This document shows, piece by piece, positions 2,110 to 8,228 of a stretch of DNA of 54,919 nt. The DNA is taken from contig CACJXH010000002.1 of the NCBI GenBank assembly GCA_902597375.1, positions 1 to 54,919 of the forward strand, in the 5' to 3' direction. Position 1 is the first letter of the stretch. Each line of letters starts with the position of its first letter. Source of the stretch: an uncultured Candidatus Actinomarina sp. (GTDB taxonomy: Bacteria; Actinomycetota; Acidimicrobiia; Actinomarinales; Actinomarinaceae). The notes beneath the pieces were generated by a model. That model was not told where the DNA came from. It did not search any database and was given only the letters and a program-made list of their open reading frames with translations. The position numbers and the translations under genes are program-made.

Positions 2110-5100
2110 AGAAATTAAGAGTATTTTGATAATTGGTTCGGGACCAATTGTTATAGGTCAAGCTTGCGAGTTTGATTATTCAGGATCTCAAGCAGCTAAA
2201 GCACTTAAAAAAGAAGGATTTCGTGTAATTCTAGTTAATTCAAATCCAGCAACTATTATGACAGATCCAGAAATGGCACATGCCACATACATCGAGCCTT
2301 TAACTCACGACTACCTAAAAAAAATAATCGAAATAGAAAAGCCTGATGCTGTTTTACCAACATTAGGAGGACAAACTGCACTTAATTTATCGATTGAATT
2401 AGAAAAAAGTGGTGTTTTAAAAGAAAATAATGTGGAACTTCTTGGAGCCTCGGCCAATGCTATTGAGATTGCAGAAAACAGATGGAAATTTAAAGAAGCT
2501 ATGGATGGAGTTGGTATTAAAACACTTAAGGCAACTTATGCTAAGTCTTTTGATGAGGGAATAAGCGCTAGTAAAGAAATTGGTTTTCCATTGATGCTAA
2601 GACCATCATTTATTCTTGGTGGTGGTGGAACAAGTGTAGTGAATAATGAAGAAGACTTTAAATCAAAATTATCTGACGCGTTTAATGCTTCTCCTACTCA
2701 GGAAGTCTTAATTGAAGAATCAATATATGGATGGAAAGAATTCGAACTTGAAGTAATGAGAGATAGTGATGGTAATGGTGTAATTGTTTGCGGAATAGAA
2801 AATTTTGATCCCATGGGTGTCCATACTGGAGACTCAATAACAGTTGCTCCTATTCAAACATTATCTGATAAAGAATATCAAACTATGAGGGATGAGGCAC
2901 TACTTTGTTTGGACACTATTGGAATAGCAACTGGTGGTAGCAATGTTCAATTTGCTATAAACCCTGAAAATGGTGATAGAAGAATAATTGAGATGAATCC
3001 TAGGGTCTCAAGGTCGTCTGCTCTAGCTTCAAAAGCAACTGGATTTCCTATTGCCAAGTTTGCTGCCCTGTTGGCAGTAGGTTACAACTTAACTGAACTT
3101 GAAAATGACATAACTGGAACAACACCGGCTAGTTTTGAACCCGTCCAAGATTATGTTGTGGTTAAAATTCCTAGATTTGATTTTCCAAAATTTCCATCAA
3201 CAGATGACATATTAGGCACATCAATGCAAAGTGTGGGTGAAGTTATGTCAATAGCTTCTACTTTTACAGAAAGCTTAACTAAAGCCATTAGGTCACTCGA
3301 AATTGGTAAATCAGGAATAAGAAATATAGACAATAGGTTTATAGGAATGCCAAAAGAAATTCTACAAGATGAAATCAGAACACCTAGACCTAGAAGAATA
3401 TTTGCGATCCTTGAGGCGATTAGAAGAAACTGGCCACTTGAAGACATAGCAAAAATATCCTCTGTAGATATATGGTTTTTACAAGAAATTGAAAAAAGTT
3501 TTAATGTTAACCCTGAAAATACTCCATCCTCTGTTCTGAAAATGCTTGGATGGACGGAAGAAGATCTTGATAATAAAGAGTCTAAAAATGAATTAGAAAA
3601 TAATAGAGTTTATAAGTTAGTTGATACATGTTCTGCAGAGTTCGAGTCCAAAACACCTTACTTATATTCAACAAATGGTGTAAGTAACGACGATACAACA
3701 ACTGACAAGAAGAAGGTTGTAGTTATTGGATCGGGTCCAAATAGAATTGGCCAAGGAATTGAGTTTGATTATTGCTGTGTTCATGGAATCAGTTCATTAA
3801 AAGAAAATGGATTTGAAGCAATAATGATAAACTCAAATCCGGAAACGGTTTCAACAGATTACGATACTGCAGATAAACTATATTTTGAGCCTCTTACATG
3901 GAGAGAAGTAAAATCTGTACTAAATAGAGAAAAGCCTGATTCGGTAATAATTCAACTTGGAGGTCAAACTCCATTAAAACTTGCAAAAAATATATCCAAA
4001 GAAGGTTTTAATATTGCTGGATCATCATTAGATGTAATTGACAAAACAGAAGATAGAGATCTATTTCAAAAACTATGTTTAGATCAGAATATTCGACAAC
4101 CAGAGTCTAAAATCGCAAAAAATGAGAATGAGTTAGTTGAAGCTGTAAAAGAAATAGGTTTTCCAGTCTTGTTACGGCCAAGTTATGTATTAGGTGGAAG
4201 AGCCATGAGAGTTGTTCAAAGTGATGAAGAACTTGAAAATTATTTGGATATATTAGCGAGTGAAGATGAAGATGGTAATCCATTTAAATCTGGTCCCCTT
4301 TTGGTTGATCAGTTTTTAACGGAAACTATTGAAATTGATGTTGACTTAATTTCTGATGGAAAAGAGGTTTATATAGCTGGAATTTTAGAACATCTTGAGC
4401 CTGCTGGAGTACATAGTGGTGATTCTACAGCTGTGATTCCTCCTTATAGTGTTGGTGAGGAAATGTTGAAAGAAATAGAGGAAAAAAGTAAAAAGCTTGC
4501 TTTAGGTCTAAATGTAAAGGGACTTCTAAATATACAATTTGCCATTAAAGATGAAGAATTATTCATATTAGAAGCGAACCCTAGAGCATCAAGAACAATG
4601 CCATTCGTTGCAAAAGTAACCGGCAATCAAATTATTAAAGCTGGAACATTATTAATGCTTGGTTATTCAATTGACGAAGTTAGAAATAAGACTAAATACT
4701 TGAGTAGCTCATCAAATAAAGTTGCAATTAAAAAGGCTATATTTCCATGGTCTAGATTTCCAGCTGAAGACACTATGTTAGGACCGGAAATGAAAGCAAC
4801 TGGTGAAGTATTAGGAGTTGGAAAAGAGTTTGGTACTGCATTAAATAAAGCATATGCAGCTGCAGGTGTAGAAATTAATAATAAAGAGAAAGGAATATTT
4901 GTAACTTTAAGTGACAGCGAAAAGCCAAATTTTATTCAAACAGTAAATAAATATCTTGAACTTGGCTTTACACTTTACTCAACTGAAGGAACAGGAAAAT
5001 TTCTTAAAAATAATGGTATTGATTCAGTAACAGTAGGTAAAGCTGATGACTTAGGACAAACTTCGTTAACAATAATTGAAGATAAATTAGTTTCTTTAGT

Positions 5101-5278
5101 AATCAATACACCAACATATGCAAATGAATTGTCAGATGGTTGGAAAATTAGACGTTTATCACATGAAACTGGAGTGGCGGTTGTTTCATCTGTAAGAGAA
5201 GCTGATGCATTTATTGAAGCATTTTTAAATCAGAACTTAGTGTTAGATGATCTGGAGGTTATACAAGATGTCAGTTAA
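2096..5278 (+). CDS. carB: carbamoyl-phosphate synthase large subunit
   Basis: About 1060 aa. Duplicated ATP-grasp halves ([19 protein letters not shown] and [18 protein letters not shown]; [11 protein letters not shown] and EANPRASRT). MGS-like C-terminus. ATG 2096 overlaps the carA end. Confidence 0.95.
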
Positions 5279-5906
5279 ACCAATTTTCTTTGCACTCGAT
5301 GGTAAGTCCCTAAAAGAATTTCAAGAACAATTAGATGTCTTAAAGGATCATATTTATGGGGTAAAAGTTGGATTAGAACTTTTTACTTCCGAAGGCCCAT
5401 CATGTGTTGAACAACTTAAGAATGATGGGTGGGTTGTTTTCTTAGATTTAAAACTACATGACATCCCAAACACTGTAGGTGAAGCTGCCGCTTCAGTTTC
5501 AAATATTGGGGCAGACTATTTAACTTTACATATATCATCTGGGAAAGAAGCATTATCAGAAGCTGTGGATAAAAAAAGTAAAGATTTAAATCTTCTTGGA
5601 GTCAGTAGTGCTTTAACAAGTAAATCAGTTGATTCAAATACAAGCAAGATTGTTAAAGATGAGTTTCAAATAGCTAAAGACTCAAATTTAGAAGGTGTTA
5701 TTTGCCCAGCATCTGAAATTGCTAATACAACAAATTTATTTGATCTAATTGTTACACCAGGCATTAGATTAGAAAATGATTTACATGGAGATCAAAAAAA
5801 CATAACTACTCCTAAAAAGGCTATCGAGCTTGGAGCAAAATATATTGTTATGGGACGATCAATTAAAAATAATCCTTCAATGGTAATAAATGAATTAGAA
5901 GTATGA
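5268..5906 (+). CDS. pyrF: orotidine-5'-phosphate decarboxylase
   Basis: FFALDGKS and [13 protein letters not shown] (D-x-K-x-x-D) motifs. GGAGG lies 9 nt upstream of ATG 5268. Overlaps the carB stop by 11 nt. Confidence 0.9.
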
Positions 5907-6580
5907 ATAAATTTATTGCAGCACCCTTTGGAAACTACATAAAGACTAAAAACACTATTTCAGTATCTGGTAGTTGGACCGTTGAAAAAAGAACAGGTCG
6001 AATTGTTCAAATAGTTAAAACTTTACGATATACAAAGCGTGGATGGGTTAACAAAATTGGTTTAAGAAATCCTGGTTTAACAATTGGGCTTCCTAAACAT
6101 AAGACTGATGAAGTCTTTTCAATTGCAGGAATAGAAAAAAATGACTGGAGATTATTTGCGGAAAAAATACCAAATGATTTCAATATTGAAGTCAATATGT
6201 CATGTCCAAATATAGAGGCACATTACATTGACGGAATTGAAGATTTTGAGCCAGATACAAGAAACTGGTACATAGGGAAAATTTCACCAATTACTACTTT
6301 TCAGGAATTAGATGAGTACATCAACAAATTTAGATTTAAACAGATTCATGCATGCAATACATTGCCAATAGATAAAGGAGGACTAAGTGGTAAAGAGTTG
6401 ATTCCATATACTTCAAAGTTTGTTAAACACATTAAAGATTCTTATCCTGATATTGAAGTTATTGCAGGTGGAGGTATTGATTCTCTAAAAGACATAGAAT
6501 ACTATAAAAATATTGGTGCCGATCATATTAGTTTGGGTACTGTTTGTTTCAATCCACTAAAATTAAGAAAGTTAATATGA
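5903..6580 (+). CDS. miniature class-1-like dihydroorotate dehydrogenase-family flavoprotein (225 aa)
   Basis: DHOD-like blocks NKIGLRNPG, VFSIAG, EVNMSCPN (class 1 catalytic Cys context), GGLSG, VIAGGGI and ISLGTV. ATGA overlap with pyrF. It is about 80-90 aa shorter than typical DHODs. Confidence 0.6.
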   Translation: MNKFIAAPFGNYIKTKNTISVSGSWTVEKRTGRIVQIVKTLRYTKRGWVNKIGLRNPGLTIGLPKHKTDEVFSIAGIEKNDWRLFAEKIPNDFNIEVNMSCPNIEAHYIDGIEDFEPDTRNWYIGKISPITTFQELDEYINKFRFKQIHACNTLPIDKGGLSGKELIPYTSKFVKHIKDSYPDIEVIAGGGIDSLKDIEYYKNIGADHISLGTVCFNPLKLRKLI

Positions 6581-6933
6581 ATTTATTTATTAGAGAAGAT
6601 TTCATCTCCCATGCTGGCTTACCACTCACATGGAAAGTGGAATGTGATGCACTAGATGAAAATGACTACGAGGCATTGGCAAAAATAGTAAGTGAGAAAA
6701 TGACTTTTAGAGATGTCAAAGGTATTCCACGTGGTGGCATACCGTTTGAAAAAGCGTTAAAACCTTACTGTTCAAATAATGATAAAGATCCATTACTAAT
6801 TTGTGATGACGTTTATACAACTGGTACTTCTATGAGAGAAGTCTATGAAGATGGAGCATTAGGAATTGTTGTATTTGCTAGAAATGAAATTCAAGATGAC
6901 TGGGTAAAAGCTATTTGGCAGTTATCAATATAA
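6577..6933 (+). CDS. minimal type I phosphoribosyltransferase-fold protein (118 aa), OPRT-like
   Basis: PRPP-binding motif PLLICDDVYTTGTSM. GIPRGGIPFEKAL resembles the OPRT GIP block. There is no equivalent of the OPRT flexible catalytic loop. ATGA overlap with the preceding gene. Confidence 0.6.
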   Translation: MNLFIREDFISHAGLPLTWKVECDALDENDYEALAKIVSEKMTFRDVKGIPRGGIPFEKALKPYCSNNDKDPLLICDDVYTTGTSMREVYEDGALGIVVFARNEIQDDWVKAIWQLSI

Positions 6934-6935
6934 AG

Positions 6936-7796
6936 ATGATAGAAAATAAGTATGCCTCAGCTTTAGATGGTCTTGAAATAGAAGATCCAGTAAAAAGCTT
7001 TTTTGATTTCTGTAAAGAACGAGAAAATATAAGAATTTCAAGAGAAAATGGTGAAGATTTTCCATGGAGTGCAGATGAAATTTTCAAAAATGGAAGGTTC
7101 CTGAATGTCTTTAGAGAAGATGATCGAGTTAGTAAATCAATTATTAAATTTGCGAGTAATTTAAATGAAGAGCCATCAAAACTAATTAACGCTGTATTTT
7201 TTGCAAGGTGGTGCAATAGGCAAGAAGTTTTAGATACTTTAACGCCCGATGATTTAAATAATCCTGAAAACTTAAAAAATAAATTAGAAAGTATTGACCC
7301 ATGGTGTAATGAAACTGCATATCCAGTTGAACCAGTTACATGGAGAGGTAAACAATACTCAAGAATTGATGCTGCAACTAAATTATTTTATGAGGTGCAA
7401 GATTCTTTATTAAATATTCTTGAAGCATCAAACAAGAGTGTGATTACCGCAACCAACAACATAAATAAAAAATTTCAAATGCAAAATGATTTTCCAATTT
7501 TCATGGCAGTTATTGATATTGCTTGGTTTAGACCCGATATTATTCCAATTGAAAGTGAGGTTCCTACAGGAATAGGTGCTGTTGCTTATCTGGATAGATT
7601 ACAAAATCATCTTGGTTTAAGTTCCCACCAAGAAGTTGGTGAAAAAATGATTGAACTACAAAAAACATACTGGCCTGAAGCAAAACGTGGTTTTAATCCA
7701 ATAGATATAGAATATTTAGCTTGTGAATGTAGAAAATACTATAGCTATATAAATGGGACGAAGGTTTTTGAAGGTAAAAACAAATTTATACCTTAA
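6936..7796 (+). CDS. uncharacterised protein resembling the aGPT-Pplase (alpha-glutamyl/putrescinyl thymine pyrophosphorylase, DNA base hypermodification) family
   Basis: N-terminal block RENIRISRENGEDFPWSADEIFKNGRFLNVFREDDRVSK, then FPIFMAVIDIAWF, PTGIGAVAYL and IEYLACECRKYY. These match my recollection of the family hallmarks. ATG 6936 lies 2 nt after the previous stop (the track start 6915 is TTG). Not verified by any search. Confidence 0.45.
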   Translation: MIENKYASALDGLEIEDPVKSFFDFCKERENIRISRENGEDFPWSADEIFKNGRFLNVFREDDRVSKSIIKFASNLNEEPSKLINAVFFARWCNRQEVLDTLTPDDLNNPENLKNKLESIDPWCNETAYPVEPVTWRGKQYSRIDAATKLFYEVQDSLLNILEASNKSVITATNNINKKFQMQNDFPIFMAVIDIAWFRPDIIPIESEVPTGIGAVAYLDRLQNHLGLSSHQEVGEKMIELQKTYWPEAKRGFNPIDIEYLACECRKYYSYINGTKVFEGKNKFIP

Positions 7797-8228
7797 TTAG
7801 CTAAGTTTATTAATTCTATTTATGTATCTTTCCTCACTTAAAAAAGAGGAATTTAAAAATGACTCAGTTATTTCTTTTGCGGCCTCAATATCTAGATTTT
7901 CCGAGCCGAGACATAGAACATTTACATCATTATGTTCAACAGATTGAATAGCGGTTTTTACATTAGTGACATTAGAAGCTCTTATACCTTTTACTTTATT
8001 TGCTGCAATAGACATCCCAACACCTGTCCCACAGATTAAAACTCCCTTTGTATCCTCATTATCCAAAACAAAATCAGTTACTTTCGTTGCATAATCTGGA
8101 AAATCACAAGGTTCAAAACTATCAGTTCCTAAGTCCTCAATTTCAAGATCAGAAGATAAAGATTCTATTAATAATTGTTTTAATTCAAAACCTGCATGAT
8201 CAGAGGCAATAGCGATTTTATTTACCAC
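7797..8228 (-). CDS. rpiB: ribose-5-phosphate isomerase B
   Basis: KIAIASDHAGFELK and LICGTGVGMSIAANK (RpiB/LacAB family). GTG start overlaps the fumC stop by 1 nt. Confidence 0.85.
   Translation of the reverse strand: MVNKIAIASDHAGFELKQLLIESLSSDLEIEDLGTDSFEPCDFPDYATKVTDFVLDNEDTKGVLICGTGVGMSIAANKVKGIRASNVTNVKTAIQSVEHNDVNVLCLGSENLDIEAAKEITESFLNSSFLSEERYINRINKLS

Follow-up and report, generated by a model that had tools for sequence, protein, structure and literature searches.

A stand-alone PF18723 protein in Candidatus Actinomarina

A 54,919-nt stretch of Candidatus Actinomarina DNA with a GC content of ~33% was analyzed at its full length and is hereafter called the window. On its forward strand, an open reading frame (ORF) designated here as gene X, or X, is translated into 286 aa and a stop codon (Table 1). 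The stop codon TAA of the preceding gene is at 6931-6933, followed by the two nucleotides AG and the ATG of X at 6936. X is the last forward-strand cistron after pyrC, carA, carB, pyrF, a dihydroorotate dehydrogenase (DHOD)-like gene and a phosphoribosyltransferase (PRTase)-like gene. The length of the protein, the 2-nt gap and the position as last cistron agree with an initial annotation of the window, and all the sequence blocks quoted there were recovered by translation: FCKERENIRISRENGEDFPWSADEIFKNGRFLNVFREDDRVSK (aa 25-67), FPIFMAVIDIAWF (aa 186-198), PTGIGAVAYL (aa 210-219), and IEYLACECRKYY (aa 258-269). The same annotation placed X in the alpha-glutamyl/putrescinyl thymine pyrophosphorylase (aGPT-Pplase) family, cited decoration of 5-hydroxymethyldeoxyuridine (5-hmdU) in DNA as the activity, and regarded the gene as hard-wired to the pyrimidine (pyr) operon upstream.

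X is a genuine gene and not a chance ORF, since 1523 homologous proteins were found, the ratio of nonsynonymous to synonymous substitutions (dN/dS) is 0.13-0.37, and the AlphaFold2 model has a predicted local distance difference test (pLDDT) score of 95.6. The homologues are nearly all stand-alone proteins of 286-295 aa. Two other ORFs overlap X: a 101-aa antisense frame (6911-7216, reverse strand) and a 293-aa version of X extended to a TTG codon (6915-7796, forward strand). They are probably artefacts of mechanical ORF listing, because all homologues begin at the ATG at 6936. Neither a promoter-like nor a terminator-like site was found between the PRTase-like gene and X or around X, and Rfam and tRNA scans revealed no RNA element near it.

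The sole Pfam match of X is PF18723, HMUDK_hel ("5-hmdU DNA kinase, helical domain"), with the E-value 6.4e-19 and 68.8 bits, above the gathering cut-off of 25 bits. The match is full-length, joining residues 19-269 of X to positions 4-272 of the 281 in the profile. Extension of the search to E-values ≤10 gave no second family, neither the amino acid:DNA transferase family PF18724 nor a glycosylase. X had no match in NCBIfam, PADLOC and PDB sequence searches, made with the single sequence and with a 30-sequence profile.

Pseudomonas phage M6 gp55 matches PF18723 at 8e-56, and PhiJL001 gp19 matches it too. Orthologues of gp55 in M6-like phages are labeled in GenBank as "aGPT-Pplase clade 1", "aGPT-Pplase1 domain-containing" or "5-hmdU DNA kinase helical domain-containing", and BFVD records likewise name PF18723 proteins aGPT-Pplase clade 1 or 5-hmdU DNA kinase helical domain. 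The gp55 match and the labels of its orthologues identify PF18723 as the renamed aGPT-Pplase clade 1, the family named in the initial annotation. M6 gp55 and X can be aligned over ~290 residues (E-value 2.5e-9, ~25% identity). Another protein of the same phage, gp51, matches PF18724 "Amino acid:DNA transferase" (ADDT) at 1.4e-46 and was listed as Pfam aGPT-Pplase2 (Lee et al. 2021, PMC8989533). The assignment to the aGPT-Pplase superfamily is thus upheld by a full-length match above threshold, with no unrelated family found, whereas the activity cited for it belongs to clade 2.

The AlphaFold2 model, built from a 34-sequence alignment, is all-helical (pTM 0.91). A Foldseek comparison with BFVD matched it at probability 1.00 to helical-domain proteins, namely the 5-hmdU DNA kinase of Bacillus phage SP10 (TMq 0.72) and proteins of phiRSL1 (0.71) and PhiW-14 (0.63); an ADDT-domain protein was matched more weakly (TMq 0.62). 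The predicted fold therefore corresponds to the helical domain of the SP10 kinase. With high confidence, X belongs to PF18723 as a stand-alone protein of cellular genomes.

Conserved residues and a putative active site

Conservation was analyzed in a set of 30 cellular and phage members and separately in 90 cellular sequences. Residues R29, P43, W44, D47, F55, N57, R60, D63, R91, Y129, F186, D194, G212, G214, E259, C263, E264, K267 and Y268 are invariant or nearly invariant among the 30 members. In the cellular set, R29, P43, W44, F55, N57, R60 and D63 are conserved in 90/90 sequences, while position 47 is Asp in 88/90 and Asn in 2/90. The N-terminal motif given in the initial annotation turned out to be the signature of clade 1 in the 30-member alignment. 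By eye, and as a resemblance without statistics, the central helix FPIFMAVIDIAWF is similar to GPFMAYEVVTD of phage clade 1 and to GPWIGFKIADM of clade 2.

A hairpin resembling the helix-hairpin-helix (HhH) motif follows this helix. Its PTGIGA segment was likened by inspection to LPGVG, the hairpin that is a feature of HhH DNA glycosylases.

The C-terminal motif contains the putative catalytic residues. E259, C263, E264, K267 and Y268 are present in 89/90 cellular sequences, the remaining one being gapped there, and phage members carry the motif as EH.LCE..KY. The spacing between Glu259 and Cys263 of X is the same as that between Glu243 and Cys247 of clade 2. The X family was compared by hhalign with M6 gp51 and with a 20-sequence ADDT alignment of low diversity (at least 53% identity). 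Just the Cys-motif segment was aligned (19-26 columns), and it fell onto E243..C247 with an E-value of ~0.08. From spacing and alignment, it is plausible that E259 is equivalent to the Glu that binds metal in clade 2, and C263 to its catalytic Cys.

Distribution and origin

Screening of 185,579 species genomes assigned the window to Candidatus Actinomarina (OCS155, Actinomarinales). X occurs in 182 species-level genomes. Loci were fetched for 80 genomes, of which 78 could be classified by context, and for nine metagenome contigs (L001-L009), the total of loci fetched being 157. No isolate is represented twice among them, so X looks single-copy.

The phylogeny of X splits into two clades, the first from Actinomarinales and the second mostly from Marinimicrobia, with mutual identity of 60-65%. 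The nearest outgroups of this cellular clade, at 30-32% identity, are phage genes in replication or nucleotide-modification modules. One outgroup (P0176) adjoins genes for DNA polymerase A, a 5'-3' exonuclease and a primase-helicase, and another (P0168) adjoins dUTPase-like, dCMP deaminase, thymidylate-synthase homologue and Prim-Pol genes. Among the 2.9 million contigs of IMG/VR, no relative exceeds 51% identity, the best match being a short segment, and full-length matches show 21-27% identity. The dN/dS values against orthologues indicate purifying selection, somewhat more relaxed than in the neighbouring genes.

The phage outgroups, the lack of a close IMG/VR relative, the purifying selection and the two-clade tree together suggest that X was a phage gene captured long ago and has become a stable, single-copy cellular gene; the phage derivation is proposed with high confidence. 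Rampant recent horizontal transfer was considered as the cause of the 60-68% identity across phyla and was rejected, since the two-clade tree indicates mostly vertical descent with relocation within each clade. Ongoing phage-mediated transfer was likewise rejected because IMG/VR contains no close viral copies. An old inter-phylum transfer of X is likely.

Genomic context in relatives

The neighbours of X differ among lineages. X follows the pyr operon in 16 genome loci, which are only from Actinomarina and occupy three branches of the X tree. In 27 loci from Actinomarina (31 with the metagenome loci L001-L004), it is located 33-34 nt downstream of a gene for an umuC-type Y-family polymerase (IMS+IMS_C+DUF4113), with a divergent gene for an umuD-like S24 peptidase. 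In 14 Marinimicrobia loci (17 with L005-L007), X overlaps the end of lptG. Outside the Actinomarina clade of the tree, it follows a glycerophosphotransferase gene in five loci (seven with metagenome loci) and an old-yellow-enzyme gene in three. Two loci from Actinomarina and Acidimicrobiaceae show ABC permease genes upstream, and 11, mainly outside the Actinomarina clade and including L080 from Rhodothermales, have various other neighbours or lack an upstream gene on the contig. One locus, L033, is labeled as a Pelagibacteraceae metagenome-assembled genome (MAG), perhaps because of a binning error: it shares a DEAD-box helicase neighbour with L056 from Marinimicrobia, and its X clusters with the Marinimicrobia sequences.

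Linkage to the pyr operon is not conserved even among close relatives. The loci L094-L096 contain carA-carB-pyrF-pyrD-like-pyrE-like genes (81% identical), followed directly by rpiB-fumC-sufC, and X is missing. The junction between pyrE and rpiB therefore occurs in two states in Actinomarina, with X present (6931-7799 in the window) or with a 4-nt overlap of pyrE and rpiB and no trace of X (5387-5390 in L094-L096). At loci L014 and L015-L025, the identity is 99% and 93-97%, respectively. In one of them, L023 (~4500-8000), X is 94% identical and the downstream rpiB-fumC is kept, while an ABC-transporter operon with one ATPase and two permeases takes the place of the pyr operon upstream.

Thus, the operon exists without X, X exists without the operon, and the two are linked in just 16/78 classifiable loci. 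The hard-wiring proposed in the initial annotation does not hold, and the coupling to pyrimidine nucleotide supply that it suggested is largely refuted by this synteny. From L094-L096, L023 and the other contexts in relatives, the position of X after pyrE is a relocatable, lineage-specific accident of one sub-lineage, with no functional coupling. X is typically the last cistron of whichever operon precedes it, often with overlapping stop and start codons, and it shares no function with its operon neighbours.

The umuC-type loci and the fused kinases

In the umuC-type loci, no promoter or terminator was found between umuC and X. The 24 nt before the start of X are conserved, with the spacer AATCTGTTTAAATTAAAGTTATG directly upstream of X. 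The divergent umuD/umuC region contains the 18-bp palindrome GAATAgTGTACAgTATTC in 30/30 umuC-type loci that cover the region, and it is absent from the rest of the 157 loci; the window has just a chance-level match with 3 mismatches. The elements of these loci are exemplified by 6642-6698 and 7961-7997 in L036, and they occupy the same positions in 30 loci. It differs from the classical LexA box of actinobacteria, and the palindrome may serve as an operator of the SOS type. On the basis of the uninterrupted umuC-X interval, the conserved 24 nt and the palindrome, X is probably part of a regulated damage-tolerance unit in these loci.

In some homologues of X, with 50-59% identity, the C-terminal part is a P-loop kinase domain of the AAA_28 (NadR) type: P0121, P0124 and P0129 from unassigned metagenome contigs, and a gene at 7956-9443 of L080, a Rhodothermales MAG. 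These fusions repeat the architecture of a helical domain plus a kinase known from phages, but the kinase belongs to another family than PF18748, the phage 5-hmdU kinase family. Three fused kinase domains were used as tblastn queries against the window and the 157 loci, and M6 gp54 against the window; only the fusions were matched. No homologue of the fused AAA_28 kinase was found within +/-8 kb of X in any stand-alone locus (0/77). By tblastn, the window contains no homologue of the M6 gp54-type 5-hmdU kinase, the fused-AAA_28-type kinase, thymidylate synthase/hydroxymethylase or the clade-2 transferase, in line with the earlier observation that neither a kinase nor a dUMP hydroxymethylase is visible there. 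None of the defence-protein models in PADLOC-DB 2.0 was matched by X, by the two genes preceding it or by the P0121 kinase fusion.

The pyr operon and other neighbours in the window

Table 1. Gene X, its conserved segments and adjacent genes in the 54,919-nt window
Feature	Position	Strand	Description and evidence
Gene X	6936-7796	+	Stand-alone PF18723 protein (HMUDK_hel, formerly aGPT-Pplase clade 1), all-helical; ORF, Pfam, AlphaFold2, Foldseek, dN/dS
N-terminal clade-1 signature of X (aa 25-67)	7008-7136	+	ERE.IR...E.G..PW..D.I.....F.NVFREDDR.SK; alignments; PHROG 2396 matches this part
Central helix of X (aa 186-198)	7491-7529	+	FPIFMAVIDIAWF, with invariant F186 and D194; alignments
HhH-like hairpin of X (aa 210-219)	7563-7592	+	PTGIGAVAYL; G212 and G214 in 90/90 cellular sequences, kept in phage members
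Putative catalytic motif of X	7710-7739	+	E259-Y-L-A-C263-E264-C-R-K267-Y268 (E-x3-C-E..KY); alignments
Likely pyrE	6577-6933	+	118-aa minimal orotate phosphoribosyltransferase-like protein; phosphoribosyl pyrophosphate (PRPP) loop LLICDDVYTTGTSM; AlphaFold2 and PDB fold matches
Likely pyrD	5903-6580	+	225-aa short class-1 DHOD-like protein; PF01180 (E-value 9e-13); NMSCPN and GGLSG motifs
rpiB	7797-8228	-	Convergent, touching the stop codon of X; PF02502 (E-value 4e-48)

The pyrC gene is truncated by the edge of the window. In L014, a locus with 99% identity, pyrB and then pyrC head the operon. The AlphaFold2 model of the PRTase-like protein has a pLDDT of 93.7, and its best PDB fold matches are orotate phosphoribosyltransferases (OPRTases), with E-values down to 4.5e-6. 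Since L014 starts with pyrB-pyrC and the mini-PRTase models as an OPRTase, all six steps of uridine monophosphate (UMP) synthesis are encoded in the operon, several of the enzymes being unusually small, and X follows a complete pyr operon.

The likeliest start of the PRTase-like gene is the ATG at 6577, which gives 118 aa, rather than the TTG of a 129-aa ORF. Known OPRTases have about 170-215 aa, and only ~170 homologues of the short protein were found. A 53% identical, 117-aa copy is encoded in a T4-like phage contig of ~189 kb (L097/L098, 5001-5354), where it adjoins clamp-loader, RegA and dUTPase genes. In relatives, the pyrE-like gene is kept in the operon with or without X downstream. The DHOD-like protein looks truncated and has weak NCBIfam DHOD matches far under all cut-offs, with the NMSCPN active-site loop retained. 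The operon contains no gene for a PyrK-like partner. The rpiB-fumC-suf synteny is common to relatives with and without X.

Comparison with characterized systems

Homologues in cellular organisms were noted by Lee et al. 2018, citing Iyer et al. 2013. Among the papers searched, none discusses the cellular PF18723 clade. Clade 1 occurs fused to, or adjacent to, base kinases. Among the closest counterparts is M6 gp55 with its orthologues in M6-like phages: like X, they match PF18723 over the full length, share the PW..D / F.N.FRE.D signature, the G.GA hairpin and E..LCE..KY, and are stand-alone proteins of ~290-320 aa. In contrast to X, gp55 is encoded in a phage hypermodification cluster with the kinase gp54, the transferase gp51, pyridoxal phosphate and radical S-adenosylmethionine enzymes and a dUMP hydroxymethylase homologue; X is cellular, has none of these neighbours, and is distant in sequence from gp55. 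In M6 lysates, the gp54 kinase and gp51 were enough for the first group transfer (the 315 u glycinyl product) and gp55 was dispensable; gp54 phosphorylates 5-hmdU DNA without gp55 (PMC8989533). The best structural match of X, SP10 gp186 (637 aa), is a fused protein of a helical domain and a P-loop kinase with demonstrated activity (PMC8989533), whereas X has no kinase domain.

Group transfer onto 5-phosphomethyl-deoxyuridine in DNA was demonstrated for clade 2 (M6 gp51, ViI gp247, PaMx11 gp46). The Cys and the neighbouring Glu are essential (PMC8989533, PMC11472151, PMC13458397). In the crystal structures, Glu243 and Thr244 bind a metal that touches O4 of the base in its flipped position, in which it is clamped by Cys247 (PMC11472151, PMC13458397). 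Clade 2, known as ADDT, Pplase2 or PUGT and including also PaMx11 gp46 structures (PDB 8Z2M/8Z2N) and YuA Pplase2, shares with X the superfamily recognized in the literature, the E-x3-C spacing and a helical fold with an HhH or HhH-like hairpin. It differs in the PF18724 match, in Thr244, and in the need for kinase-made 5-phosphomethyl-deoxyuridine; its amine-binding pocket residues could not be mapped onto X. Decoration of 5-hmdU in DNA is thus an activity proven for clade 2, and it cannot be carried over to X, which lacks a PF18724 match and whose phage counterpart gp55 is dispensable for the first transfer.

The HhH glycosylases Ogg and AGOG and the queuosine-5'-monophosphate glycosylase QNG1, the top but non-significant PDB fold matches of X, are helical and two-lobed with an HhH hairpin, and they bind a flipped or free nucleobase. 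Unlike HhH(-GPD) glycosylases, X has no evident GPD-type catalytic Asp, and its Cys-Glu motif is foreign to glycosylases.

Possible function of X

The interpretation favoured here, with a probability of roughly 55% as a whole, is that X is a domesticated, cellular, kinase-less PF18723 member maintained under purifying selection in Actinomarina and Marinimicrobia. Its family membership, its phage derivation and the accidental nature of its position behind the pyr operon are proposed with high confidence. A mechanism is put forward only tentatively, at odds somewhat below even: X would be a base-flipping DNA enzyme that engages a 5-substituted uracil via E259 and C263 with no dedicated kinase. 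X would bind duplex DNA via the HhH-like hairpin with G212 and G214 and flip out a thymine-derived base, such as 5-hydroxymethyluracil (5-hmU) or a related 5-substituted uracil. The most plausible base is 5-hmU, which could stem from the oxidation of thymine or be brought in with phage DNA. The flipped base would be engaged by Glu259 and Cys263, which are spaced like the Glu that binds metal and the Cys that attacks C6 in clade 2, and X may process or mark it alone. The target could be damaged host DNA or incoming phage DNA of the hmU type; damaged host DNA fits the umuC-X arrangement of most Actinomarina. An extension of this idea is unlikely: the phage enzyme may have been repurposed in Actinomarina and Marinimicrobia for kinase-independent processing of 5-hmU-type oxidized thymine in their own DNA, and the covalent attack of Cys263 at C6 would then be a new route of repair or direct reversal, expressed in most Actinomarina with the umuDC damage-response unit.

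Several points weigh against a DNA enzyme of this kind. No biochemical function has been reported for clade 1, phages included, and from the dispensability of gp55 in the first transfer step of M6, the domain may serve for recognition and not for catalysis. A common origin of the Cys motifs of X and clade 2 is not established statistically (hhalign E-value 0.08), and the Thr beside the metal-binding Glu of clade 2 (Thr244) corresponds to Tyr260 in X. The Foldseek search against PDB gave nothing significant; its top matches were QNG1/DUF2419, Ogg and AGOG (E-values 0.25-3, TM 0.25-0.41), and the clade-2 structures 8Z2M/8Z2N were absent from the top 50. These matches agree just loosely with the description of the aGPT-Pplase superfamily as a divergent HhH-containing fold (PMC13458397; PMC11472151), and the relationship to HhH glycosylases, drawn from weak model-based fold matches and the literature, is weakly indicated. 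X is acidic (isoelectric point 4.97), as are its neighbours. The umuC association is a single evolutionary event in one order and counts for little. No source of 5-hmU is evident beyond oxidative damage or phage DNA. The view covers 55 kb of this genome, and a partner could act in trans.

The last point leads to a different proposal, in which X is the subunit recognizing DNA or 5-hmU in a split base kinase or hypermodification system, the kinase and perhaps the 5-hmU source being encoded elsewhere and Actinomarina DNA carrying a modified thymine. By its Pfam definition, PF18723 is a helical domain found in 5-hmdU DNA kinases, the pair is fused and active in SP10 gp186 and separate in M6 as gp54 and gp55, and the AAA_28 fusions show that homologues of X with 50-59% identity are joined to a kinase. 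These facts are set against the absence of a fused-type kinase around the stand-alone loci and of any such kinase, M6-type kinase or hydroxymethylase in the window, and against the ability of gp54 to phosphorylate its substrate without gp55. Streamlined genomes of ~1 Mb, moreover, seldom retain multi-gene modification pathways dispersed over the chromosome, and a split system is improbable. Slightly less credit is given to X as an anti-phage factor. It would then detect thymine of the hmU type, or hypermodified thymine, in the DNA of an invading phage and block this DNA, for example via a covalent Cys263-DNA adduct. The clade is phage-derived, and defence systems of Escherichia coli include validated cellular 5-hmU kinase and thymidylate-synthase domains, with aGPT-Pplase domains predicted in others (PMC13092281). 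X, however, has no PADLOC match, no defence island and no partner effector, and a stable single-copy gene in housekeeping operons, vertically inherited within each phylum, is unlike typical defence genes.

Two proposals would take X away from DNA modification, and the chances of both are slim. X could be what is left of a phage gene, with a DNA-binding or structural but no catalytic role, or it could act in the manner of TenA on a small 5-(X-methyl)pyrimidine, such as the thiamin precursors hydroxymethylpyrimidine (HMP) and aminomethylpyrimidine (AmMP), with the Cys attacking C6. The absence of an established function for clade 1 leaves room for this, and many streamlined marine bacteria rely on the salvage of pyrimidine precursors. 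Thiamin salvage uses Cys-at-C6 chemistry on hydroxymethyl-pyrimidines. ThiD was named the closest chemical analogue of the phage kinase by Lee et al. 2021 (PMC8989533). On the other side, about 20 polar or aromatic residues that are invariant or nearly so, together with dN/dS of 0.13-0.37, speak for a specific active site; conservation extends to the HhH-like hairpin, and neither thiamin genes nor a thiamin pyrophosphate riboswitch lie nearby. Very little probability remains for the idea that X makes, remodels or sanitises a modified pyrimidine nucleotide in coupling with de novo UMP synthesis. Co-transcription of X with pyrB-pyrC-carAB-pyrF-pyrD-pyrE is probable in the window as well as at 16 related loci, and the top PDB matches include QNG1/DUF2419, an enzyme of free nucleotides. 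But these QNG1 matches are not significant (E-values ≥0.25), the operon already encodes all six steps, and the linkage is missing in L094-L096, L023, most Actinomarina and all Marinimicrobia loci. All characterized relatives act on DNA polymers.

What is new here is a kinase-less cellular variant of a known phage family without an assigned function. The distinct cellular clade, with its invariant residues resembling an active site, is retained in single copy, without a nearby kinase or hydroxymethylase, in genomes of ~1 Mb that shed dispensable genes. This retention implies that X must be useful on its own, and compared with the phage clusters, it thus offers a cleaner setting in which to identify the role of the domain. 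For annotation, the locus teaches that the position of last cistron in an operon of a streamlined genome is weak evidence for a shared function. Actinomarina and Marinimicrobia are among the most abundant streamlined bacterial lineages of the ocean. If the substrate of X is oxidized thymine in DNA, bacteria of the sunlit ocean would possess an extra repair chemistry, and if it is phage DNA, they would possess an extra principle of defence.

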